DNA of 41,332 nucleotides from Bacillota bacterium (lineage in GTDB: Bacteria > Bacillota > Limnochordia > Darwinibacteriales > DTU012). Location of the stretch: the NCBI GenBank assembly GCA_012798795.1, contig JAAZMN010000129.1:1-41332 (forward strand), read 5' to 3'. Positions 370-40,645 of this stretch are shown here, piece by piece. A model generated the notes under the pieces. The model had not been told where the DNA came from, did not search any database, and worked only from the letters and a program-made list of their open reading frames with translations. The translations under genes and the position numbers were made by a program. Position 1 is the first letter of the stretch. Each line of letters begins with the position of its first letter.

Positions 370-1362
370 CTAGGAAGAAAAAAGGATTTCCTCATAGACA
401 GCCAATATCTTTTTTGTCATTTCCAAACTGCTAAGAGAGCTTTCAGCGAATTGACGACTAAAATCCTGCACTTGACTAAGGCGTTTTCTATTTGAGATTA
501 ATGAAAACAAGTCTTGATAAAGTTTGTCATAATTGAACCGACCAATATTTCCGGAGAAATCAAAATTAGGCTTTTGAGTCAATATTTCATCAATTAATCC
601 GTCATATTTAGTATTCATTAGAAAGACAGCACAACCGCAAGCTAAGGCTTCGCGTGCACTGCGCCCGCATCCGATAACGATATTAGCAGTTTTGAGTATA
701 TTTTCAATCCGAGGCTGCCAGGGAACAAAGTCTATTTCCTTGATGGGCGGCTGCCAGTTACCCACTACTATAAGGCGAATATGGGTTATTTTATCAACTG
801 CTTTTTTCAGTTCTTTAAGTGGGTATACTTTTGACCAATCAATTCGTCCTACGTAGTATACGTTAAAGACAGTAGCCTTTTTGGCTGGCTTAAATCGATG
901 AATATCAATGCCATTGGGGATTATTATTACCTTATCTTTGTACAGGGGTAATATTTCTCTTGCTGAATTAACTCCTACAGTAATAATGCGTTCGGCATTT
1001 TGCAGTGATTTTCGGTATTTCATATGAGAAAAGCCTAAGCCATGGCAGGTAACTAAATAAGGTGTTTGGGTTATCTCTGCCAGATTTTTAGTCAAATTAA
1101 AAATAGTGGAGCTGTGAGAGTGAATGATATCCGGCTGAAACCGCCTCGTGATTTGAGCGATTTTTGTTTTATTGCTGGTATGGTAGTATTTAATGCGGGC
1201 TTTTTTCAGCATCGGATCATAATATTCACTAAAAATTGATGTATGAATATTGATGAAAATTATTTTCACCGTATGACCTAATTGCCGCAGTTGGACAGCA
1301 AGATCAAGAACATGAGTTGATTGTCCGCTTAAGAAAAACTCGGCAGTCAGTAATATCTTCAT
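370..1362 (-). CDS. Glycosyltransferase, GT-B fold (GT4-like)
   Basis: 330 aa. N-terminal MKILLTAEFF..GQSTHVLDLA..LGH and IIHSHS segments. C-terminal GRSAREALACGCAV segment resembles the GT4 nucleotide-sugar binding region. Last gene of a co-directional minus-strand cluster. Confidence 0.7.
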   Translation of the reverse strand: MKILLTAEFFLSGQSTHVLDLAVQLRQLGHTVKIIFINIHTSIFSEYYDPMLKKARIKYYHTSNKTKIAQITRRFQPDIIHSHSSTIFNLTKNLAEITQTPYLVTCHGLGFSHMKYRKSLQNAERIITVGVNSAREILPLYKDKVIIIPNGIDIHRFKPAKKATVFNVYYVGRIDWSKVYPLKELKKAVDKITHIRLIVVGNWQPPIKEIDFVPWQPRIENILKTANIVIGCGRSAREALACGCAVFLMNTKYDGLIDEILTQKPNFDFSGNIGRFNYDKLYQDLFSLISNRKRLSQVQDFSRQFAESSLSSLEMTKKILAVYEEILFSS

Positions 1363-1443: not shown

Positions 1444-1884
1444 CTAGTTTTTTTCTTTTATTAGTACAGCTGCTCCTAGGATAATTAAAATTATCGGCCA
1501 TATTATCTTCCACGGAATTGAGGGGGTAATTTTCCTGATTAAAACTAGCACACCTACAATCAATAAAATTAGCCCAATAATTTGATAAGGATTCTTCACT
1601 GATACAGTATTTGTTTGTGATACTTTATCAACCATATGATTAACCGAATTCTTGACTCTGTCGATGACAGCATCCTGTTTTTGCATATAATTCGAGTTGG
1701 GATTAGCTGGGATGAGAATTAATGCCGCTATGTATGCAATGATACCTATTCCGTTCAAAAAAGCGAGTATGGTCCAAACTATCCTGACAATAGTCGCATC
1801 GATTTCCAGATATTCGGCGAAACCGCCGCATACTCCACCGATAATCTTGTTGTCTGATAAGTAAAGCCGTTTATTATTATTCAT
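1444..1884 (-). CDS. PspC-domain membrane protein
   Basis: LYLSDNKIIGGVCGGFAEYLEIDATIVRIVW is the typical PspC-domain signature, followed by TM helices. AAAGGAG lies upstream of the ATG. Confidence 0.75.
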   Translation of the reverse strand: MNNNKRLYLSDNKIIGGVCGGFAEYLEIDATIVRIVWTILAFLNGIGIIAYIAALILIPANPNSNYMQKQDAVIDRVKNSVNHMVDKVSQTNTVSVKNPYQIIGLILLIVGVLVLIRKITPSIPWKIIWPIILIILGAAVLIKEKN

Positions 1885-1915: not shown

Positions 1916-2992
1916 CTATTGAAATAGCGGTACACTAAGCCCAATACCGAACATAGTTTTGTTACCATATGTGTGCAGGGCTTTAAAAGTAAAGTAAGAA
2001 ACAGCTGTCGCTGTGATCATTGTATATAACTGCTGCTGGTTATAATTATATCCAACTGTCCAGTTTAAATCTAGTGAAGGAATAATATCGTTAAAATTAA
2101 GGCCTACTCCGACTAGAGCGGCAGATGAGTTGAATTCATAAAAACCGTTAAGAGCGAATCTATCTGCAATATGGATAAAACATCCCAAACCAAGATTGGA
2201 AAATAATGCATCTGCCCTAATACTTAGTTTATCAGGGGGCGCTCCTGTATAATCTCTGTCAAAATATTCATACTTACTATTTAATACAACATTAAATAAA
2301 TTAGGAGTTGATGATCTAGCTATTGCATAACGCAGGTTATCTGGAGCCCATTTGGTAAATTCAGCTAAAGCCTGTTTTCGTTTGTCAGGATAGAGAACAG
2401 GTTTTTTTACTGTTTTTTCCGAAGGAATGAAATTCTGATCTATATAAACATGATAGTATTTAGAGTAAATATCAAGCCCTTCCTCTTGGGCAACATTAGC
2501 TAATGCCCTGGCTAATGTCTGATGATCTTTATGTCTGTCCTCACTATTGACTGTGCAGTGAAGGCTGCCGGGGAACAGTTTGGCAAAAAATCTGATGGTT
2601 TCTTCCACTGCTGTTTGCGGAATATTTCCATCCTGATAATCGAAAAAAATTACTTGATCAGGAGAAATTCCTAATACCTGTAAAGCTGCTAAGGTTTCTT
2701 TTACTCGTGCTCTGCCGAATTCTTCCTGAGTTAGTTGATGTATTTTACCATCCGGTCCTGTTAGGGTCATCCTAGTAATTGAGCTGCTTCCTTTGGAAAA
2801 GTAAATAAAGTAGTTGTAGTTACCGTCAAGCACAGATTGATAAATGCTATCTGCCATTCCCAGCGTTTCATCGTCGGGATGGGGCAGGTACCATATTACT
2901 ATGTCTTTTGCAGAAGTTTGCCAGGTGTTTGCAAAAAACAAAATGCTCAAAAGGAAAAAGGCAAATATAACTGCCATAATTCTATAATACAT
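1916..2992 (-). CDS. Exported PIG-L/LmbE-family N-deacetylase with C-terminal beta-strand-rich (putative outer-membrane) module
   Basis: Signal-peptide-like N-terminus (MYYRIMAVIFAFFLLSILFFANTWQTSA/KD). PIG-L signatures PHPDDETLG and HKDHQ. The last ~105 aa have alternating hydrophobic/polar strands ending ..GIGLSVPLFQ. The ATG at 2992 shares one base with the upstream stop (TGATG) and is preceded by AAGGAGG. The ORF-track start at 2995 is a TTG one codon earlier. Confidence 0.7.
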   Translation of the reverse strand: MYYRIMAVIFAFFLLSILFFANTWQTSAKDIVIWYLPHPDDETLGMADSIYQSVLDGNYNYFIYFSKGSSSITRMTLTGPDGKIHQLTQEEFGRARVKETLAALQVLGISPDQVIFFDYQDGNIPQTAVEETIRFFAKLFPGSLHCTVNSEDRHKDHQTLARALANVAQEEGLDIYSKYYHVYIDQNFIPSEKTVKKPVLYPDKRKQALAEFTKWAPDNLRYAIARSSTPNLFNVVLNSKYEYFDRDYTGAPPDKLSIRADALFSNLGLGCFIHIADRFALNGFYEFNSSAALVGVGLNFNDIIPSLDLNWTVGYNYNQQQLYTMITATAVSYFTFKALHTYGNKTMFGIGLSVPLFQ

Positions 2993-4626
2993 CAAAATTC
3001 CTCCTTAAATACACTGAACTTCCAATTCAGGGTGGTATCGACGTTTCTAATCATACCTATATTCACATCAAACGGGTACATTCCAAAGAGACGGAAATTT
3101 GTTCCCAAGCCGGCTTGATATGAAGTATTAGGTTCCCATTTTGATAATAAACTTTCTAAATCTACCTGCCCATAGATATATGGCCTGGCTAGAGTAATTT
3201 CCATAAGGGAGAAAAACTCATCGGTAAGATACAGCTTGATTCTGCCGCTTAAATTGAGATAAATTGGTTCTGTGTCAGCGTTAATCTTTTTGACCAGTGC
3301 AGCAGCAGAACCTAACTGAAAGTTTTTCTGTTTTAAAACAGCGTTGTTAACTATTGAAACACGCCATTTATAAGTACCGTTCAGCTGGTACGACCCTTGA
3401 AATCTCGTGTTTTTGATTAAAGGGAATTCGAGCTTAATACCGACATTTAATTTTTCATTCATATTTAGTTTACGGACAAACAGTTCGCCTTGCCCTACAG
3501 CAGGTTTCGACCAGCCAAAGAAAACTTCATGTCCTCCTTCAGCTGCCGAAAAACCGTAACGGTAACCAAGATTAAACCAGGATAACGGGCCATGACTGAG
3601 TTTTAACCCAAGTTTCAAAGCACAGTCATCAGATAACTGGATTTGAGGAGTTACTGAAAACGGGCGTTTAGTATTTAATGCAGTTTTTTCTGCTTTTGTT
3701 ATGATCTTTTCTAGGCATTCTTGAGAATATCCTTGTTGTTGATAAGGTACGAATTCAAAATCGGGGTCATGTGCCAATATGGCTGTCTTTATTTGCTCCA
3801 TATATTTAATGCCAGCTAAGTAACCTTCTTCAATAAACATTTCGGCTTTTTGGTAATCCATATATGAATCGAATTTCACGTCAGGTATAATAATAACATC
3901 GGCTTCAGCTGTATTTAACTCAACATATCCGTCAATCATAAACCACATTGCTAACTGCAGATTGTTAAGAACACTGTTATAATTTATGCTTTTTAGTTCC
4001 TTTTTTACATCAACACCAATAATTACATCAGCACCGAAATTCGACGCAGTATTAACCGGCACAGCATTTTTCATTCCGCCGTCAACGTAATACACATCAT
4101 TAATAGATACAGCTGGAAATAAGGCAGGGATTGACATGCTTGCTTGAATACCAGTGCTGACTTTCCCTTGATTTAACGCTAATTCTTCTCCAGTAGCCAG
4201 CTCAGTGATAACTGAATAAAAGGGAATATCCAACTCGGCAAAAGTTTTATGATGTAGCAAAACGTCAAGATATTGTTCTAATCTTGCGGTGTTGATAAAA
4301 CCGCCTTTAGGGGGAATTAATATATCTATAAGCGAAGCGACATTTAGTTGGGTGGCAATTTCTTTCATGTTTTCTACCGAATAACCGGCGGCATAAAGAC
4401 CTGAAACAACACTGCCCATACTTGTACCGACAAGCATGTCGATGGGAACTCCATTTTCTTCAAACGCTTGTATTAGTCCAATGTGACTAAAACCTCGAGC
4501 TGCTCCGCCGCCTAAAACTAAGGCAACTTTAGGATTAGATACAGCAAAAACTATATGGGATTGCATAAGAAAGAAGACTATTATACATATCGATATCAAA
4601 GGTAATCTTCTTGTGTTTCTGAGCAA
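2992..4626 (-). CDS. Patatin-like phospholipase fused to an Omp85-type (bacterial surface antigen) beta-barrel, PlpD/type Vd-like
   Basis: Signal peptide. Patatin motifs GGGAARG (oxyanion hole), GTSMG (GxSxG nucleophile) and VDGG (catalytic Asp). The C-terminal ~240 aa is a beta-strand pattern ending GLGTNFRLFGMYPFDVNIGMIRN...NWKFSVFKEEF with a terminal Phe, as in Omp85-family barrels. TTG start with GGAG upstream. Confidence 0.75.
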   Translation of the reverse strand: MLRNTRRLPLISICIIVFFLMQSHIVFAVSNPKVALVLGGGAARGFSHIGLIQAFEENGVPIDMLVGTSMGSVVSGLYAAGYSVENMKEIATQLNVASLIDILIPPKGGFINTARLEQYLDVLLHHKTFAELDIPFYSVITELATGEELALNQGKVSTGIQASMSIPALFPAVSINDVYYVDGGMKNAVPVNTASNFGADVIIGVDVKKELKSINYNSVLNNLQLAMWFMIDGYVELNTAEADVIIIPDVKFDSYMDYQKAEMFIEEGYLAGIKYMEQIKTAILAHDPDFEFVPYQQQGYSQECLEKIITKAEKTALNTKRPFSVTPQIQLSDDCALKLGLKLSHGPLSWFNLGYRYGFSAAEGGHEVFFGWSKPAVGQGELFVRKLNMNEKLNVGIKLEFPLIKNTRFQGSYQLNGTYKWRVSIVNNAVLKQKNFQLGSAAALVKKINADTEPIYLNLSGRIKLYLTDEFFSLMEITLARPYIYGQVDLESLLSKWEPNTSYQAGLGTNFRLFGMYPFDVNIGMIRNVDTTLNWKFSVFKEEF

Positions 4627-19846: not shown

Positions 19847-21223
19847 ATGTTGAAAAAAAGAACAACGAGATTGCTGCTGGTAAGTCTGGTTGTGATAATT
19901 TTTTCAAATCCGCTGGTTAAAGCAGAAGATTCGGCAGTGGAAATTGTAATCAATATACCACAATTTAAACTCTATCTTTATGAAAACCAGATACTAATCA
20001 GGCAGTATCCGATTGGAGTTGGTAATGAAGTAAGACCGTCAGTATTAGGGAAAACAGAAGTAATTAATCGCGTTGTTAATCCTACATATTATCCGCCACG
20101 TTGGTGGGAGCGGGGAGTTGAACCAATACCTCCAGGACCGGATAATCCAGTAGGGACAAGGTGGATTGGATTGGGTTTTCCAAGTTATGGAATTCACGGC
20201 ACTAATAATCCTGATTCTATCGGTAAAGCAATGTCAGCGGGATGTATAAGAATGTACAATGCTGACATTGAAGAATTAATTGAACTTGTTCCCATAGGAA
20301 CGCCGGTGTCACTAATTTATCAGACAATTATTGTTAATCAAGACCCACTCTTAAATACCAAGACCATTGCTGTTTACCCTGATATTTACAACAGCAGTTC
20401 TAATACAGTAGCTAATGCCAAACAGATTTTAGAACAGCGTCAATGGAATGATGTTTATTTACCTGTCTTAGAGTGTATCATGGACAATTCAACAGGGATG
20501 AACATGCCCTTACCCATAGCTGTGGATATTAGAGTTAATGATCAATTGCTGGATCAAAAGGCAGTTAAGTACGGTAAGAAGTATTATATTCCACTTAATC
20601 AGTGGGAAGACGCTGCCGTATCAGACAGCAGTTATCAGGATTTTAAGCTGTGGGATGGGAAATATGTAAATCTGATCGAATTTGCCAATACTAATGGCTG
20701 TGGATATCATGTAGGAGATGAGATTGAGATATTTGACGTAGAAGTAGTTTTGTTTGATGAGCCTATTGGACTCAATGCTTTTTTATTCGATAATCAACTT
20801 TATCTTTCCGTAGATGAATTAAGCAATAAGGTTGGTTTACCGGTACCGGATTTTCTCAACGGGATGATTAAGGAAATTGAGGGAAACAGATGCCTTGATC
20901 AGTCTGGAATCAAAGCGTGGGGGTTTACCATTGATTGGGAGTATCCGTTGAGACAAGTAAAACTACAGATTCCCCAAGCATATTTAGATCAAAAGTTATT
21001 AGGAATAGCTCTAACTGAAATCAATGAAGAAATATACGTACCTTTCAATCCGATTATAGATTTAATTAAAGCTAAACCGAACTTTTTAAATGATGAAAAC
21101 ACCCTATTGTTTTATAATACACACGGTGTGGAAATGCTCAAGGTCAATGATTTAGTATATGTCCCAGAATGGGTGATTAGGTGGTTGATGCCTGGGGCAG
21201 AGCTGTCAATTATTTATCCATAA
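19847..21223 (+). CDS. L,D-transpeptidase (YkuD domain) with C-terminal repeat (copper-amine-oxidase-N-like) region
   Basis: Signal peptide. YkuD catalytic block GIHGTNNPDSIGKAMSAGCIRM. C-terminal repeats of the ..YIPLNQW / ..LYLSVDEL / ..IYVPFNPI type. Confidence 0.85.
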   Translation: MLKKRTTRLLLVSLVVIIFSNPLVKAEDSAVEIVINIPQFKLYLYENQILIRQYPIGVGNEVRPSVLGKTEVINRVVNPTYYPPRWWERGVEPIPPGPDNPVGTRWIGLGFPSYGIHGTNNPDSIGKAMSAGCIRMYNADIEELIELVPIGTPVSLIYQTIIVNQDPLLNTKTIAVYPDIYNSSSNTVANAKQILEQRQWNDVYLPVLECIMDNSTGMNMPLPIAVDIRVNDQLLDQKAVKYGKKYYIPLNQWEDAAVSDSSYQDFKLWDGKYVNLIEFANTNGCGYHVGDEIEIFDVEVVLFDEPIGLNAFLFDNQLYLSVDELSNKVGLPVPDFLNGMIKEIEGNRCLDQSGIKAWGFTIDWEYPLRQVKLQIPQAYLDQKLLGIALTEINEEIYVPFNPIIDLIKAKPNFLNDENTLLFYNTHGVEMLKVNDLVYVPEWVIRWLMPGAELSIIYP

Positions 21224-21264: not shown

Positions 21265-22458
21265 TTACATTGAAACGCCGGATAATAATCGCTGAGCAAT
21301 TTCTATTTGAGCGTATTCAAGCAGCTGCTCCCAATTCTGATTAATTGCTGAGTAGAATATTTCGGGAGTAACTCCCAGATAATCAGAGAATATCAAAGCA
21401 GCTCGATCAACTCCCATGTTTTTCAGTGACGTCCAATCTTGAGAAAGAAGTGCATCAGTTTCCCATGGTGTCAATCCTAATTCTATTAATTGTGCAGAGA
21501 GATTATGGCGAAATCCGTCACTTACTGTAGTCCAATCTCCAGAAATGATTGCCGCAATTTGTTCAGGAGTAAGAATCTGCTGTAAGACTTGAAGTGTTTC
21601 AGCATTGGTTAGTGTCTCTATATTTGGAGATTCGCGGAATTTCTGTAATAAACCGGTCAAACTCTGCAGCAAATTATTATTGGCAAGAGTGGGAGTAACA
21701 TTAACAACAGCTACACTGCCGTAAATGTCATATAAGGCATTTAGTTGATCGCCTGTCTTGATTTGTTCGATTTGCTTAGTCTCACCATTTCGCAGTATAA
21801 TGGTATCAGCTTCAACAGGTAGATAGCGAAATTGTTCGCTGCCGGTATTGATTATAATCCAATTTGCCGGTTTGCGGACTTCTACTACTTCACCAGCAAC
21901 TGTCTCTAAGTTCATGATTGCATCAAATATGGCTGCAACTTCGGCCCGGGTTGATAAACGCTCAGGTTCAAAGTGGTTCATAACATAAATAGGCAGCACA
22001 TCCAGCTTATTGATTAATTCAATAGTAGCGAATAGCGGATGATTAGGGTCTACGTCTTCGAATGATTGCTCCCATTCATCAACATTAATGCTTTGTTTTG
22101 ACAGATTGAGTAAGTTAGCGGCAGCTGCAATTAGCTCTGTTCTGGTAATAAAAGTATCATTCTGTTCTACAAGGTCAGCTTCAGGCATAAAGTGGTCTAA
22201 CCAGCTGTAAAGAGCCTGCTGTTCAGCACTGGAGAGATTAAAGCACTTGGCGGCTAATTCAATTAGTTCATCTAATGTAACATTGTTATTTGGCTGAAAA
22301 GACTCATTATAGACTCCTTCAAATACACCTAAATCCGATAGTCTAATTATAGCTTCTTGTGCCCAACTTCCTTCAATGTCAGAAAAGTTAGTTGAAGCAA
22401 TGACAGTATTGCTGAATAATAATATGGTCGTCAATAAGAATATGGATATTTTCTTCAT
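21265..22458 (-). CDS. Secreted S-layer-homology (SLH) domain protein
   Basis: Signal peptide. Three SLH-like repeats (FSDIEGSWAQEAIIRLSDLGVFEG..., ...TRTELIAAAANLL..., FEDVDPNHPLFATIELINKLDV...RLSTRAEVAAIF). C-terminal domain unassigned. Confidence 0.8.
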   Translation of the reverse strand: MKKISIFLLTTILLFSNTVIASTNFSDIEGSWAQEAIIRLSDLGVFEGVYNESFQPNNNVTLDELIELAAKCFNLSSAEQQALYSWLDHFMPEADLVEQNDTFITRTELIAAAANLLNLSKQSINVDEWEQSFEDVDPNHPLFATIELINKLDVLPIYVMNHFEPERLSTRAEVAAIFDAIMNLETVAGEVVEVRKPANWIIINTGSEQFRYLPVEADTIILRNGETKQIEQIKTGDQLNALYDIYGSVAVVNVTPTLANNNLLQSLTGLLQKFRESPNIETLTNAETLQVLQQILTPEQIAAIISGDWTTVSDGFRHNLSAQLIELGLTPWETDALLSQDWTSLKNMGVDRAALIFSDYLGVTPEIFYSAINQNWEQLLEYAQIEIAQRLLSGVSM

Positions 22459-26685: not shown

Positions 26686-27255
26686 TTGCCATTGAACCGA
26701 CTATTAACGATTTTTGCTGTAGTAGTCATATTCGTAGTTGTATTGTATTTTTCTGTTTCTTTGAGGCCACTCCTCCAAAGACTTTATCCCCTGGATTATT
26801 CGGATATTATTAGCGAGCAGGCCCGGTTGTATAAAATTGATCCTTTATTGATTGCAGCCATAATAAGTGTGGAGAGTAGATGGGTTACTACTGCTGTTTC
26901 TTCTAAGGGGGCTGCTGGACTAATGCAGTTGATGCCTGATACGGCAGTATGGATTGCAGCTCAAACCAGGACTGATTTTACAGAGGATGATATCTTTATT
27001 CCAGAAATAAATATTAGATTTGGATGCTGGTATCTTAATTATCTGCAGGAGCAGTTTTCAAGTCTTACTGCTGCTTTAGCTGCATATAACGGTGGGCAGG
27101 GTAATGTGCGTCAATGGTTGGCGGAAAATATATGGGATGGCAGTTATGAAAATTTTTCTGATATTCCTTTTTGGGAAACCCGGGGTTATATCAAAAAAAT
27201 CACATATACTTGGAATATTTATCAAAAAATATATGATTATCAATGGGAAGAATGA
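26686..27255 (+). CDS. Membrane-anchored lytic transglycosylase (SLT domain)
   Basis: N-terminal TM helix. SLT catalytic region ISVESRW...AAGLMQLMPDTA...AYNGGQGNV. The true start may be the TTG at 26692, which is 6 nt after GGGGG. Confidence 0.85.
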   Translation: MPLNRLLTIFAVVVIFVVVLYFSVSLRPLLQRLYPLDYSDIISEQARLYKIDPLLIAAIISVESRWVTTAVSSKGAAGLMQLMPDTAVWIAAQTRTDFTEDDIFIPEINIRFGCWYLNYLQEQFSSLTAALAAYNGGQGNVRQWLAENIWDGSYENFSDIPFWETRGYIKKITYTWNIYQKIYDYQWEE

Positions 27256-36684: not shown

Positions 36685-38382
36685 TTGGCACAAAGGAAAC
36701 GTCTGGGGGATATACTTATAGAAAGAGGATTACTTAACGAACAGCAGCTGCAAAAAGCCTTGGCTATGCAGCGGGATTCTGGCGAAAAGTTAGGTAATGC
36801 TTTAATTAAGCTTGGTTTTATAACCCCAGATAATTTAGCTGATGCTCTAAGTGTACATCTTGGATATCCAAGAGTTGATTTGAATCGTCATTATATTTCA
36901 ACTCCTGTGGTCAAAATGATACCAGAGGAGTTTTTAGCATCTCATGAGATATTTCCCCTTGATTTAAATAATAATGTAATGACAGTAGCTATGACGGACC
37001 CGTTAAACATTTTAGTAATAGATGAACTGCAGAGGATTACAGGTTATATAGTTAAGCCCGTAATAGCTACAAGTGATGAGATAAAAGCGGCGGTTAATCG
37101 TTCGCATGATATTATCTCTACTGCTCGGAAAGTCTTTGATGAATATACTGATGAAGATTCGGATCAATCTGATCAGAATCAGGAGGAGTATTTAGGTGAT
37201 GCGCCGGGAGTTCGTTTGGCCAACATAATTTTGGAACAAGCCGTTAGGGAGAAAGCCAGTGATATTCATTTGGAGCCTCAAGAGGAAGAGCTTGACGTCA
37301 GATTTAGGGTAGACGGTATTTTACGAAAAGTAATGACAGTTCCTAAAAGGCTGCGCAATGATGTAAATTCGCGGATCAAAATTATGAGTAATCTTGACAT
37401 TACTGAAAGGCGTCGTCCGCAGGATGGCAGAATTCAAACTAAGATAGGCGATTCTGAAGTTGATATGCGTATTTCAACGTTACCGACAATTCATGGTGAA
37501 AAAATTGTTGCACGTGTATTAAACAAATCTCACGGACCCTTAAGTATTAAAGAGTTTGGATTTGATGAAGATTCTAACGAAAAAATTCTTCGAATTCTAA
37601 ACATTTCTCAAGGTTTAATATTAGTAACCGGCCCGACAGGCAGTGGCAAGACAACCACTTTGTATGGATTTTTAAATCATCTAAATACAGTAGAAAAAAA
37701 CATTATTACAGTTGAAGACCCGGTTGAGTATCAATTAACTGGAATTAATCAGGTACAGATAAATCCAAAAATAGGATTAACTTTTGCTGCAGGATTGCGA
37801 AGCGTATTGCGCCAAGATCCGGATATTATTATGGTAGGTGAAATCAGAGATGATGAGACAGCAGAAATTGCAGTTCGTTCGGCTTTAACCGGGCATTTAG
37901 TTTTGAGTACTGTGCATACCAACAATACGGTTGCTACCATCAGCCGATTAATGAACATGAATGTTGATCCTTATTTAATTAGTGGGACTATATCTGCTAT
38001 AATTTCACAAAGATTAGTGCGAAAAATCTGTCCTGAATGTAAAGAAGAAGTTTTACTAACTGATCCTTTAGCTATTAGGTTTATTAAATCTCTGGGGGTT
38101 TCTGTCCCCAAAGTCGTATATCAAGGAAAAGGATGTCCGTTGTGCAAGGATTCAGGCTATTTAGGCAGAGTTCCGCTGGAAGAAGTCTTGATTGTCAATA
38201 GGCAGCTGCGCAAGGCAATTGATGCTAAAGCCAGTGAAGATGATATGCGGGAGATTGCAATCCGCAGTGGAATGGTACCGCTGCAGGTTAATGCTGTATT
38301 AAAATTGATTCAAGGAATTACAACTGTTTCTGAAGTGATTCGTACTGTATACAGTACAGATGAACAGGAGGCGTTGGATTGA
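36685..38382 (+). CDS. pilB: Type IV pilus assembly ATPase PilB (GspE family) with N-terminal MshEN domain
   Basis: 565 aa. MshEN/T2SSE_N N-terminus. Walker A GPTGSGKTTT, Asp box, Walker B, His box. Tetracysteine CPEC...CPLC. TTG start 7 nt after GAGGTG. Confidence 0.92.
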   Translation: MAQRKRLGDILIERGLLNEQQLQKALAMQRDSGEKLGNALIKLGFITPDNLADALSVHLGYPRVDLNRHYISTPVVKMIPEEFLASHEIFPLDLNNNVMTVAMTDPLNILVIDELQRITGYIVKPVIATSDEIKAAVNRSHDIISTARKVFDEYTDEDSDQSDQNQEEYLGDAPGVRLANIILEQAVREKASDIHLEPQEEELDVRFRVDGILRKVMTVPKRLRNDVNSRIKIMSNLDITERRRPQDGRIQTKIGDSEVDMRISTLPTIHGEKIVARVLNKSHGPLSIKEFGFDEDSNEKILRILNISQGLILVTGPTGSGKTTTLYGFLNHLNTVEKNIITVEDPVEYQLTGINQVQINPKIGLTFAAGLRSVLRQDPDIIMVGEIRDDETAEIAVRSALTGHLVLSTVHTNNTVATISRLMNMNVDPYLISGTISAIISQRLVRKICPECKEEVLLTDPLAIRFIKSLGVSVPKVVYQGKGCPLCKDSGYLGRVPLEEVLIVNRQLRKAIDAKASEDDMREIAIRSGMVPLQVNAVLKLIQGITTVSEVIRTVYSTDEQEALD

Positions 38383-39419
38383 AACCTGTCAGCCATATAC
38401 ATGAATTACTTGAAATTGCAATTGATCAACGTGCTTCGGATTTACATATTTCTCCGGGGATTCCTCCATATTTGCGAATTTTTGGGAAGGTTATTCCTCT
38501 AACAGCTTATGAGAAATTAGCACCAAATGAAATTGAAGTATTGATAAAACCAATAATAGATGCTGAGCAGCACAAAATTTTAAATAAACATGGCGAAGTG
38601 GATTTTTCCTATGGAGTGCGAGGCGTTGGCCGCTTTCGGTGCAGCGTATATCAGCAGCGGGGTTCGCTGTCAGCAGCCATTCGTGTAATTAATGCCAAAA
38701 TACATTCCTTACAGCAGTTGGGATTACCCAGTATTATCAAGGATATTGCCAGAAAAAAAGATGGACTTATTCTGGTTACCGGCCCGACCGGAAGTGGTAA
38801 ATCTACAACCTTAGCAGCTGTGATCAATTTAATTAATGAGGAGCGCCAAGGTGTAATTATTACTTTGGAGGATCCGATAGAGTATTTACACAGTCATAAA
38901 CGTTGTATTATTAATCAGCGCGAAGTAGGTACGGATACACGCAGCTTTGCTAATGGGCTTAGGGCAGCATTAAGAGCGGATCCGGATGTGATTTTAGTTG
39001 GTGAAATGCGAGATTTGGAGACAATAGCTACCGCCATAACTGCCGCTGAAACCGGACATCTTGTTTTATCAACCTTACATACACGAGGAGCTGCCAAGAC
39101 TATAGATCGAATAATTGATGCATTTCCTCCTGATAATCAACAGCAGATTAGAGTTCAATTATCAATGGTTTTAGAAGCAGTAATATCCCAGCAGCTGATT
39201 GTTAAAAAGGATGGAGACGGAATGGTGCCTGCGGTAGAAGTTATGCTGGGAACACCGGCAATTCGAAATTTAATTCGCGAAGGGAAAACGCATCAGATAA
39301 ATTCTGTAATTGAAACGGGAAAGAGATTTGGGATGAAGACTTTGACATCGTCCGTAAATGAATTAGTTTATGCGGATCAGATCAATTTAGAAGATGCTCA
39401 AATTTTTGGGTTTGATTAA
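38379..39419 (+). CDS. pilT: Twitching-motility (retraction) ATPase PilT
   Basis: 346 aa. ASDLHI, GPTGSGKSTT, DPIEY, AALRADPDVILVGEMRD, GHLVLSTLHT, AIRNLIREGK. The TTG start overlaps the pilB stop by 4 nt and GGAGG lies upstream. Confidence 0.9.
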   Translation: MKPVSHIHELLEIAIDQRASDLHISPGIPPYLRIFGKVIPLTAYEKLAPNEIEVLIKPIIDAEQHKILNKHGEVDFSYGVRGVGRFRCSVYQQRGSLSAAIRVINAKIHSLQQLGLPSIIKDIARKKDGLILVTGPTGSGKSTTLAAVINLINEERQGVIITLEDPIEYLHSHKRCIINQREVGTDTRSFANGLRAALRADPDVILVGEMRDLETIATAITAAETGHLVLSTLHTRGAAKTIDRIIDAFPPDNQQQIRVQLSMVLEAVISQQLIVKKDGDGMVPAVEVMLGTPAIRNLIREGKTHQINSVIETGKRFGMKTLTSSVNELVYADQINLEDAQIFGFD

Positions 39420-40645
39420 TGGTGGTGAAGCATATGATCCAATTTCAATATAAAGCTAGAGACAGACAAGGCAGAGAAGTAAACGGGACTATTGAAATGG
39501 ATACGAAGGAGCTTGCAGTTACGAGTTTGCGGGAGCAGGGTTATTATGTTACCGAGATAAAAGAAGTATCCAAACGCCGTTTGAGTAACATAGTTATATT
39601 TCAGTCCAGTAAAACCCTAAAAGCAAAAGATTTGGCTTTGTTTTGCCGTCAATTTGCTATTCAATTAGAAGCAGGTTTGTCTTTAACTGCATGTTTAGAG
39701 CTGCTGGAAGAACAGTCTGCAGATGAGATTCTTAAAAACGTTTTAAGAACAATTAGATTAGATGTAGCCAGCGGCATGACATTCACAAATGCAGTTGAAA
39801 AGCATAAAGAAATATTTCCGCATGAGTTTATTTACTTAATTTCAGCTGGAGAAATTGCCGGAGAACTGCCTGCTGTATTAGAGCAGTTGGCTGTTTACTA
39901 TGAAAGAGAAGATGAGCTGCGTAAAAAACTGTCCGAAGCTTTGATGTACCCGATTGTTATTGCTAGTATAGCTGTTATAGTTGTTATTGCACTAATATTT
40001 TTTGTTTTGCCGATGCTGATCAAAAACTTTTCCGCTTTTGGAGTGCAAACTCCCCGGATTACACAGGTAATATTAGACGCCAGAGACTTCTTAATCGACT
40101 TTTGGTATGTGTTTGTTGGATTTATTGTATTTTTTATTGTATTTATAAAATGGTATTTAAAGACTAAAAGAGGATGTTATCAAAAAGATCTGCTCAAGTT
40201 GAAACTGCCGATTATGGGCAAAATCAATCAGATGGTTATTTTTTCTCGAATTTCGCGAGTGTTAGGACTGCTGTTGGCCAGCGGAATTTCCATGGTAAAA
40301 AGTTTAGAAATTACAGAGCGGTTAATTACCAACGTTTGGATTCGGGACTCATTAAACGATTCAAGATTAGCTGTTGAAAAAGGGCAGGGATTGACTGAAC
40401 CGTTGAAAAAGAGTAATTTATTTCCAGCAATGTTTGTGCAGATGGTTGCAGTAGGCGAGGAAACCGGGAACTTAGAACAGACTTTAAAACATCTGTCTGA
40501 TTATTACGATAAGGAAGTAAATTTTACAGTTTCAGCATTTACAAAACTGCTTGAACCTGTAATGATGGTTGTACTGGCCATAGTAGTATTATTTGTTTTA
40601 GTATCGGTATATTTACCCATGATTCAAATGGTAACACAGCTGTAA
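39419..40645 (+). CDS. pilC: Type IV pilus platform protein PilC (GspF family)
   Basis: 408 aa. Two GspF repeats (FCRQFAIQLEAGLSL..., FSRISRVLGLLLASGISMVKSL...) and three TM segments. The ATG overlaps the pilT stop (TAATG). Alternative ATG at 39434. Confidence 0.9.
   Translation: MVVKHMIQFQYKARDRQGREVNGTIEMDTKELAVTSLREQGYYVTEIKEVSKRRLSNIVIFQSSKTLKAKDLALFCRQFAIQLEAGLSLTACLELLEEQSADEILKNVLRTIRLDVASGMTFTNAVEKHKEIFPHEFIYLISAGEIAGELPAVLEQLAVYYEREDELRKKLSEALMYPIVIASIAVIVVIALIFFVLPMLIKNFSAFGVQTPRITQVILDARDFLIDFWYVFVGFIVFFIVFIKWYLKTKRGCYQKDLLKLKLPIMGKINQMVIFSRISRVLGLLLASGISMVKSLEITERLITNVWIRDSLNDSRLAVEKGQGLTEPLKKSNLFPAMFVQMVAVGEETGNLEQTLKHLSDYYDKEVNFTVSAFTKLLEPVMMVVLAIVVLFVLVSVYLPMIQMVTQL

Follow-up and report, generated by a model that had tools for sequence, protein, structure and literature searches.

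The characterised members of the PIG-L/LmbE superfamily, among them MshB, BshB, diacetylchitobiose deacetylase, Orf2* and eukaryotic PIG-L, share one catalytic fold and the HPDD...HxDH motifs, and are either cytoplasmic or turned towards the cytoplasm. No exported form is mentioned in a review of these enzymes (PMC4101496). Here we describe a gene on a 41,332-nucleotide contig of a Bacillota bacterium (JAAZMN010000129.1, assembly GCA_012798795.1; this whole stretch is called the window hereafter) whose product has the same fold and motifs, but also a signal peptide and a predicted C-terminal beta-barrel. We consider it probable, though far from certain, that the protein is an outer-membrane-anchored, periplasm-facing zinc de-N-acetylase; its gene overlaps that of a patatin-like lipase. 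Full-text literature searches did not find a PIG-L domain described on an outer-membrane barrel; the original prediction, which was made from the sequence of the window alone, had likewise supposed that none was described.

PlpD and FplA ('type Vd'), which combine an N-terminal lipid-acting enzyme with a C-terminal barrel, offer the nearest working parallel to the PIG-L protein and to its patatin partner. In PlpD, the N-terminal patatin enzyme is kept periplasmic by the C-terminal outer-membrane barrel, and cells that lack PlpD have altered membrane lipids (PMC11116518). PlpD has a 16-stranded Omp85 barrel and a POTRA domain, whereas the window PIG-L protein has eight predicted strands and no POTRA, and the patatin protein has no Omp85 or POTRA match. 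In its features the predicted barrel is closer to the OmpA N-domain, OmpX, PagP, PagL and the designed 6x9z, with which it shares the 8-strand meander, a hydrophobic belt with aromatic ends, a Gly/polar lumen and very short turns. It has about 100 residues, far fewer than OmpX (about 148), and sequence homology to curated families is not detectable. A small barrel can carry a periplasmic domain, as OmpA does; in the window protein the order is reversed, the enzyme coming first and the barrel last. PagP and PagL are barrels that are themselves enzymes, whereas the window protein has a separate PIG-L domain. Finally, PgaB and PelA (family CE4) carry out extracytoplasmic de-N-acetylation of N-acetylglucosamine (GlcNAc) or N-acetylgalactosamine polymers next to the outer membrane. 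They differ in having a NodB fold and not PIG-L, in being lipid-anchored or soluble, and in having no lipase partner.

Catalytic domain and predicted C-terminal barrel

The open reading frame was listed as 1916..2995 on the reverse strand (359 amino acids), opening at TTG. The true start is almost certainly the ATG at 2992, because AAGGAGG lies 7 nucleotides upstream of it and a 99%-identical database protein (P0001) is 358 amino acids long. The gene thus occupies 1916..2992 (-) and encodes 358 amino acids, exactly the coordinates given in the original prediction. In the residue numbering used throughout, the TTG is residue 1. The features of the gene are the following:

3000..3006 (-): Shine-Dalgarno sequence AAGGAGG of the PIG-L gene, 7 nucleotides upstream of ATG 2992, by direct reading
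2909..2992 (-): Sec-type signal peptide MYYRIMAVIFAFFLLSILFFANTWQTSA, with predicted signal peptidase I (SPase I) cleavage after TSA; n/h/c layout and AxA-type -3/-1 site conserved in the family
2258..2908 (-): PIG-L/LmbE (CE14) zinc-dependent de-N-acetylase domain, residues 30-246, from Pfam PF02585, AlphaFold2 (AF2) and Foldseek
2867..2884 (-): PHPDDE motif, residues 38-43, nearly invariant in 34 sequences and aligned with PHPDD of 8bgn
2522..2533 (-): HKDH motif, residues 155-158, with H155 and H158 invariant and D157 nearly invariant in 34 sequences, aligned with HpDH of 8bgn
2222..2257 (-): flexible linker RDYTGAPPDKLS, residues 247-258, variable and without regular secondary structure, where the block value of the predicted local distance difference test (pLDDT) falls to 67
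1919..2221 (-): predicted C-terminal 8-stranded up-and-down beta-barrel, residues 259-359, a putative outer-membrane anchor, from AF2, Foldseek, face statistics and a TodX profile match

In a 90%-identity database the family comprises 34 clusters (E from 1e-241 to 1e-28). The succession of signal peptide, PIG-L domain and barrel is seen in 32 of the 33 sequences aligned with the window protein, the remaining one (P0029) being cut at its N-terminus.

Judged by its sequence, the protein is a bona fide PIG-L/LmbE member with its catalytic machinery intact. The Pfam PIG-L model matched residues 37-167 with E=1.4e-16 and 61.6 bits, the gathering cut-off being 28.2. In the alignment of 34 family members H146, H155 and H158 are invariant and P38-H-P-D-D-E43 nearly so, and the PHPDDE and HKDH motifs align with HPDD and HxDH of diacetylchitobiose deacetylase (8bgn). 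The intact PIG-L signature of the original prediction was thus recovered by a Pfam profile match above cut-off and by alignment with the active-site motifs. By analogy with MshB and BshB we take H39, D42 and H158 to be the metal ligands, D41 the general base and H155 the catalytic histidine. Deacetylation of a GlcNAc N-acetyl group is the chemistry to be expected of such a site.

The full-length AF2 model, computed on the family alignment, had a mean pLDDT of 91.5 and a predicted template modelling score (pTM) of 0.76, the catalytic domain being mostly above 90. Compared with the PDB by Foldseek, it gave 42 matches at E<=0.001, all of PIG-L/LmbE fold and dominated by the catalytic domain. The family matches had a probability of 1.0 and E between 2.5e-8 and 1.3e-5, on the Rossmann-like alpha/beta fold of MshB and BshB. 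They included the teicoplanin deacetylase Orf2*, diacetylchitobiose deacetylase (Dac), BshB, MshB, the structural-genomics entries TT1542, BC1534 and LnmX, and the hydratase GalB. Sequence identity to the solved structures is only 12-19%. The scores of BshB1 TIGR04001 (19.1 bits, cut-off 182.5) and BshB2 TIGR04000 (12.9 bits, cut-off 195.25) were far below threshold, which ruled out an identity as BshB/MshB equivalog.

Beyond the linker, AF2 placed strands at residues 259-266, 269-276, 280-287, 292-305, 308-317, 322-331, 335-342 and 347-358, joined by turns of 2-4 residues, with block pLDDT values of 79-97 in the full-length model. The last 112 residues modelled alone again gave eight strands and no helices (mean pLDDT 92.1, pTM 0.80), and the family alignment shows a strict two-residue periodicity in the strands. 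The C-terminus is predicted to form a closed antiparallel 8-stranded barrel; a beta-sandwich carbohydrate-binding module, the outcome named in the original prediction as speaking against it, was not what AF2 modelled. That prediction had proposed a small transmembrane beta-barrel: the barrel is now modelled, and its place in a membrane is what sequence patterns suggest. A type IX secretion system C-terminal sorting domain (TIGR04183-type beta-sandwich) was also considered and rejected, there being no NCBIfam hit, a barrel and not a sandwich, and a host from Bacillota and not Bacteroidota. Over the window and the loci L001-L088, a hidden Markov model of the barrel found it solely in PIG-L proteins.

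With the isolated barrel, Foldseek gave no match at E<=0.001 (E was no better than 0.08). The top-ranked entries were all barrels, mostly 8-stranded up-and-down: 5hal, a 103-residue soluble barrel, with a TM-score of 0.62-0.67, the OmpA transmembrane domain with 0.43-0.49, and further the EspP barrel bound to the beta-barrel assembly machinery (BAM), avidins, lipocalins and the MoaF-like 4q51. For the modelled structure, the Foldseek fold search alone does not separate an OmpA-like membrane barrel from a small soluble one.

We therefore compared the two faces of the strands, whose inward or outward orientation was deduced from the family alignment (34 sequences) and not read off the model. One face is hydrophobic, its 35 positions having a mean Kyte-Doolittle value of 2.65 and 0% charged residues. 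Its aromatics amount to 33% at strand ends versus 7.5% in the centre, which is 80% aliphatic. The opposite, polar face has 19% Gly and 25% charged residues and carries 7 of the 9 most conserved face positions (G271, G313, G315, G352, S266, H317 and Y324); H341 and T347, in the beta7-beta8 turn beside it, are equally conserved. The summed side-chain volume is 2191 +/- 125 A^3 for the polar face and 3177 +/- 129 A^3 for the hydrophobic one. Since the lumen of a barrel with n=8 and S=8-10 measures about 2000-2800 A^3 (a rough geometric estimate), the polar face fits inside and the hydrophobic face is too bulky. Searched against PDB sequences, the barrel profile retrieved at E<1 only FadL-family outer-membrane barrels; TodX was matched at E=8.6e-5 via several transmembrane hairpins of the 'lGlxYxlxdxlxlxaxYxf' type. 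D, E, K and R make up 9% of the barrel of the window protein versus 24% of its catalytic domain. Of the 34 family members, 11 have a C-terminal Phe, as the beta-signal of outer-membrane barrels would have. Taken together, the face pattern, the distribution of aromatics, the volumes, the TodX match and the low charge speak for a barrel with a hydrophobic exterior, and so for one embedded in a membrane, which we regard as reasonably probable. Overall charge content and the charge balance of the polar face were dropped as a discriminator, negative and positive counts correlating only with r=0.38.

The alternative that survives best, unlikely in our estimate and yet to be taken seriously, is a soluble, calycin- or lipocalin-like 8-stranded barrel with a hydrophobic interior, which would bind part of the substrate, such as its lipid tail, and present it to the PIG-L site, or serve as a sorting module. 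The enzyme would then be soluble in the periplasm or secreted, or tethered by an uncleaved N-terminal helix. Such a barrel agrees with the Foldseek geometry, where 5hal, the MoaF-like 4q51, avidins and lipocalins are among the best neighbours, and with a polar face charged enough for a solvent-exposed sheet. The conserved His, Tyr, Arg and Asp at one rim resemble the mouth of a calyx, an enzyme that deacetylates glycolipids beside a lipase could well use a module that binds lipid, and the curated outer-membrane-protein families are unmatched. However, the hydrophobic face is too bulky for the lumen, aromatics are kept out of its centre and concentrated at the strand ends, and the invariant glycines lie on the polar face. 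Of the lipocalin hallmarks, the flanking 3-10 helix and the C-terminal alpha-helix are missing from the C-terminal AF2 model, and the GxW motif from the first strand. Moreover, the profile finds outer-membrane hairpins in the PDB and no soluble barrels, although these are abundant there. The fusion, lastly, is seen only in diderm-labelled lineages, and relatives with the same catalytic domain carry a transmembrane helix, a lipobox or choline-binding repeats.

The conserved rim is made of S-N-x-D, D/E-F/Y, GxGYHF...PY and RH...T (residues 266-269, 287-288, 313-324 and 340-347; about 1952..2200). It could be a second functional site, or the hint of a ligand-binding calyx.

Export, host envelope and orientation

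The N-terminus of the window protein has a basic n-region (R5), a hydrophobic core whose best 10-residue Kyte-Doolittle mean is 3.09, and the junction TSA|KD. The basic start and the hydrophobic core are found family-wide. Across 34 homologs, position -1 is A in 22, G in 4 and S in 2 (A/G/S in 28/34), position -3 is A in 17 and V in 5 (A/V/G/T in 27/34), and Pro is frequent at -6. The predicted signal peptides are 22-29 residues long in nearly all members. By SPase I rules the precursor is predicted to be exported with a cleavable Sec signal peptide, so the Sec-type signal peptide of the original prediction holds in its n/h/c layout and its -3/-1 residues.

It is very improbable, in our view, that this segment is an uncleaved signal-anchor which would hold the enzyme on the cytoplasmic membrane, like its relatives of about 250 amino acids, with the barrel touching the wall or outer membrane only peripherally. 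The hydrophobic core is admittedly long (about 17 residues) and a confident helix in the AF2 model, and the close relatives P0052 and P0060, as well as a C. difficile PIG-L protein (PMC12613277), appear N-terminally anchored. The small residues at -1 and -3 are however well conserved and Pro is frequent at -6, as at SPase I sites, and the length of the predicted signal peptides is typical of cleaved ones.

An anchor in an outer membrane calls for a diderm host. The nearest named relatives of the DNA polymerase PolA encoded in the window are from unclassified Bacillota (56% identity) and a 'Limnochordia bacterium' (54%), Clostridia reaching at most 50%, and homologs of the patatin partner are repeatedly labelled Limnochordia. 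One member of the PIG-L-barrel family comes from Halothermotrichaceae, order Halanaerobiales. Both Limnochordia and Halanaerobiia have been described as diderm. Taib et al. analysed 46 Limnochordia genomes, all of which reportedly carry outer-membrane markers, and electron microscopy showed outer membranes in new isolates (PMC11456536; PMC11448272). In related loci the gene pair moreover has weakly DUF1302-like neighbours, within an MMPL cluster described below. An outer membrane in the host organism is thus plausible. A profile search of 1.84 billion representative proteins returned about 3950 clusters of PIG-L relatives, some 16 of which also covered the barrel, and species-representative genomes gave at least two full-length matches. 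The original prediction had asked whether the fusion is restricted to diderm Firmicutes, and the taxonomically labelled members do all come from diderm lineages (Limnochordia-like or Halanaerobiales).

If the protein is an outer-membrane-anchored deacetylase, Sec would export the precursor, to be cleaved after TSA, and BAM would insert the C-terminal 100 or so residues as a minimal 8-stranded barrel into the diderm Firmicute outer membrane. The number of strands being even, both ends of the barrel would be periplasmic and the PIG-L domain would therefore lie at the inner face of the outer membrane. The original prediction spoke of surface or outer-membrane anchoring; the outer-membrane anchor is favoured here, and a surface location of the N-terminal enzyme is unlikely. 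Held on its 12-residue linker at the periplasmic face, the PIG-L domain would use the metal on H39, D42 and H158 to hydrolyse the N-acetyl group of GlcNAc on an envelope glycoconjugate, with D41 as general base and H155 assisting.

Type Va autotransporters have 12 strands, and type Vd proteins 16 plus POTRA. The least probable alternative, to which we give hardly any weight, is an autotransporter-like translocator, acting alone or with the C-terminal domain of the partner to export the PIG-L domain to the surface, where it would modify lipopolysaccharide (LPS) or a surface glycan: the order of N-terminal passenger and C-terminal barrel does resemble type V secretion, and the partner lipase has a longer C-terminal region (about 227 amino acids) ending in Phe, but eight strands are too few for a pore, the linker is short (12 residues), non-helical and of low confidence, Pfam gives no autotransporter, POTRA or Omp85 hit in the PIG-L or the patatin protein, and even the patatin domain of PlpD stays periplasmic (PMC11116518). 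The protein, which has eight predicted strands and neither a POTRA domain nor a linker helix, is therefore not taken for a type V autotransporter.

The patatin-like partner and other neighbours

The original prediction missed the gene that precedes the PIG-L gene, a patatin-like lipase that our analysis adds. Four co-directional genes stand together, the PIG-L gene and three others:

2992..4626 (-): exported patatin-like lipase (patatin domain at residues 36-194, Pfam Patatin E=5e-31) with a C-terminal region of about 227 amino acids ending in Phe; the upstream partner
1444..1884 (-): PspC/LiaF-type membrane protein (Pfam PspC E=1e-21), downstream, probably in the same operon
370..1362 (-): GT4 glycosyltransferase without signal peptide (Pfam Glyco_transf_4 E=1.8e-19), downstream, probably in the same operon

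The patatin stop codon TGA overlaps the PIG-L ATG by 1 nucleotide (TGATG), the classic arrangement of translational coupling, which we therefore propose for the two genes. No terminator-like site was found between the four genes, and on this layout PspC and GT4 probably share the operon of the PIG-L gene. The adjacency of the patatin (about 540 amino acids) and PIG-L genes recurs in six contexts (the window, L001, L007, L086, L087 and L088), where stop and start often overlap and the other neighbours differ. PspC and GT4 are kept only in close relatives such as L001, GT4 being absent from L086, L087 and L088. The patatin lipase is commoner than the pair, and stands without a PIG-L gene in Limnochordia-type loci.

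The lipase carries a signal peptide; F is the last residue in 21 of its 32 homologs. Its C-terminal region of about 227 amino acids had nothing significant against Pfam and PDB sequences, Omp85 and POTRA included. The region may form another outer-membrane barrel, larger than that of the PIG-L protein and PlpD-like but for the missing POTRA/Omp85 signatures. Aligned with the PIG-L barrel by hhalign it gave a probability of 3.8%, and no relation was shown. A beta-moment scan of this region was uninformative.

In the proposed mechanism, the deacetylase would work together with this translationally coupled lipase. The coupling suggests that both enzymes act on an envelope lipid, glycolipid or lipid-linked glycan, and we infer that the substrate of the deacetylase is a GlcNAc-bearing envelope lipid or glycan, the lipid theme being drawn from the lipase partner and from MMPL/LolA-like neighbours.

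Several points weigh against an outer-membrane, periplasm-facing deacetylase acting with the lipase. Regarding the barrel, the outward-pointing face is deduced and not observed, and the best geometric Foldseek match is the small soluble barrel 5hal, ahead of OmpA. No curated outer-membrane-protein family matched in Pfam and NCBIfam scans of 30 barrel sequences, the single signal from an outer-membrane-protein model being TIGR04219 with a non-significant E=0.043 in 1 of the 30. Just a third of the family has an aromatic C-terminal residue (F 11, Y 1 and W 1 in 34 sequences, many others having 2-4 extra basic residues), and the window protein ends in ...PLFQ. The most conserved barrel residues also gather at the rim opposite the linker, which would be the extracellular side of an outer-membrane barrel, usually the most variable one. 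Regarding the host, its diderm status rests on the 54-56% PolA identity to labelled metagenome-assembled genomes (MAGs), and no outer-membrane marker gene was found in the 41-kb window. Regarding the function, the substrate is entirely inferred, the loci L004 and L006 have the PIG-L-barrel gene without the patatin partner, and the linkage to GT4 and PspC is confined to close relatives.

Two ideas on function drawn from neighbouring genes carry little weight. A PIG-A/PIG-L-like pathway with the downstream GT4 is no more than a weak idea, GT4 and PspC accompanying the gene just in close relatives, and a sporulation role from YtrH/YtrI or SpoVS neighbours had no support, neighbours differing between loci.

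Some loci of the family and of the lipase contain other envelope genes. In L086 (11059..15372), L089 (7725..12101) and L090 (7685..12105) the patatin(-PIG-L) gene is convergent with a conserved TetR-MMPL-TP_0789/DUF1329-like cluster. It includes a protein of 409-443 amino acids with sub-threshold matches to DUF1302 and once to Wzi, which we take to be outer-membrane barrel families. The cluster resembles an envelope-spanning system for the export of lipids in Limnochordia-type genomes. In L006 (3934..4557, +), about 3.4 kb upstream of the PIG-L-barrel gene, lies a 207-amino-acid open reading frame, whose signal peptide is accompanied by amphipathic strands that end in GLGLTY; it looks like a small outer-membrane protein without Pfam hit. 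In L004 (7051..9204, +), from a Halothermotrichaceae MAG, the PIG-L-barrel gene is followed by genes for a 407-amino-acid protein (weak AAT acyltransferase Pfam match, no obvious signal peptide) and an exported 304-amino-acid protein of no known family. One family member (L088) stands beside Wzz and BY-kinase genes.

The 41-kb window itself is mostly housekeeping (DnaE, MurA-like, ACC, PFK, PK, RNR, PolA, Fpg, PilB/T/C). The genes for PilB, PilT and a PilC-like protein (ATPases and platform protein of a type IV pilus or type II secretion system) lie at 36685..40645 (+); a secretin gene is not within the window. Two genes of cell-wall remodelling encode an exported YkuD-type L,D-transpeptidase of 458 amino acids, with a long C-terminal extension without Pfam match (19847..21223, +), and an SLT lytic transglycosylase (26686..27255, +). 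The SLH protein at 21265..22458 (-) was considered as an OmpM-type diderm marker and rejected: beyond a single N-terminal SLH domain, this exported protein does not look beta-rich in sequence.

Exported relatives and meaning of the fusion

Export is not peculiar to this family. Firmicutes PIG-L relatives with an N-terminal export or anchor signal (P0047, P0052, P0060, P0061, P0099 and P0070) matched the profile at E of about 1e-30 to 1e-69 over residues ~8-240. They belong to the same catalytic subfamily, but have no barrel, their anchors being a transmembrane helix, a lipid or cell-wall-binding repeats. P0061 is a lipobox lipoprotein, P0099 combines leucine-rich and choline-binding repeats, and P0070 has a second PIG-L copy and an M23 peptidase. 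The same PIG-L subfamily is also found fused to an N-terminal GNAT (Acetyltransf_6) domain (P0057, P0062 and P0068). A C. difficile 'Pig-L' protein with an N-terminal transmembrane segment has been studied genetically (PMC12613277). PplD of streptococci was dropped as an example of a characterised exported PIG-L enzyme, the PplD paper never mentioning PIG-L. The view in the original prediction that the characterised PIG-L members are soluble or act on the cytoplasmic side does not extend to the uncharacterised relatives, among which export is common. The novelty therefore lies in the fusion to a barrel. The fusions of the relatives to leucine-rich and choline-binding repeats, to an M23 peptidase and to a GNAT domain suggest a largely unexplored group of cell-envelope de-N-acetylases, in which one enzyme module has apparently received the anchor appropriate to each envelope.

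A broader proposal, which we regard as doubtful at present, is that the module of about 100 residues represents a new, unusually small class of natural outer-membrane barrels, serving as a portable anchor of diderm Firmicutes. Together with a barrel-bearing patatin lipase, the deacetylase would then form a lineage-specific lipid or glycolipid remodelling pair (converting for example GlcNAc-lipid or LPS-linked GlcNAc to cationic glucosamine), and the His/Tyr/Arg rim would be a second, outward-facing site.

Should the barrel prove soluble, what remains is an ordinary exported CE14 enzyme that carries a new accessory domain. If the outer-membrane anchor is true, the PIG-L/LmbE superfamily would gain an extracytoplasmic, outer-membrane-tethered member, and a two-gene lipase and deacetylase unit of envelope remodelling would be specific to these diderm lineages. 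The barrel would be a natural 8-stranded one of about 100 residues, roughly the size of transmembrane barrels designed de novo. Protein engineers could find in it a minimal membrane anchor, and it would also interest those who study what BAM inserts. The outer membranes of diderm Firmicutes (Limnochordia, Halanaerobiales, Negativicutes) hold a central place in the debate on the origin of one-membraned bacteria, and very few of their outer-membrane proteins are known. If the anchor is true, the gene could become one more marker by which genomes of uncultured Bacillota are recognised as diderm.

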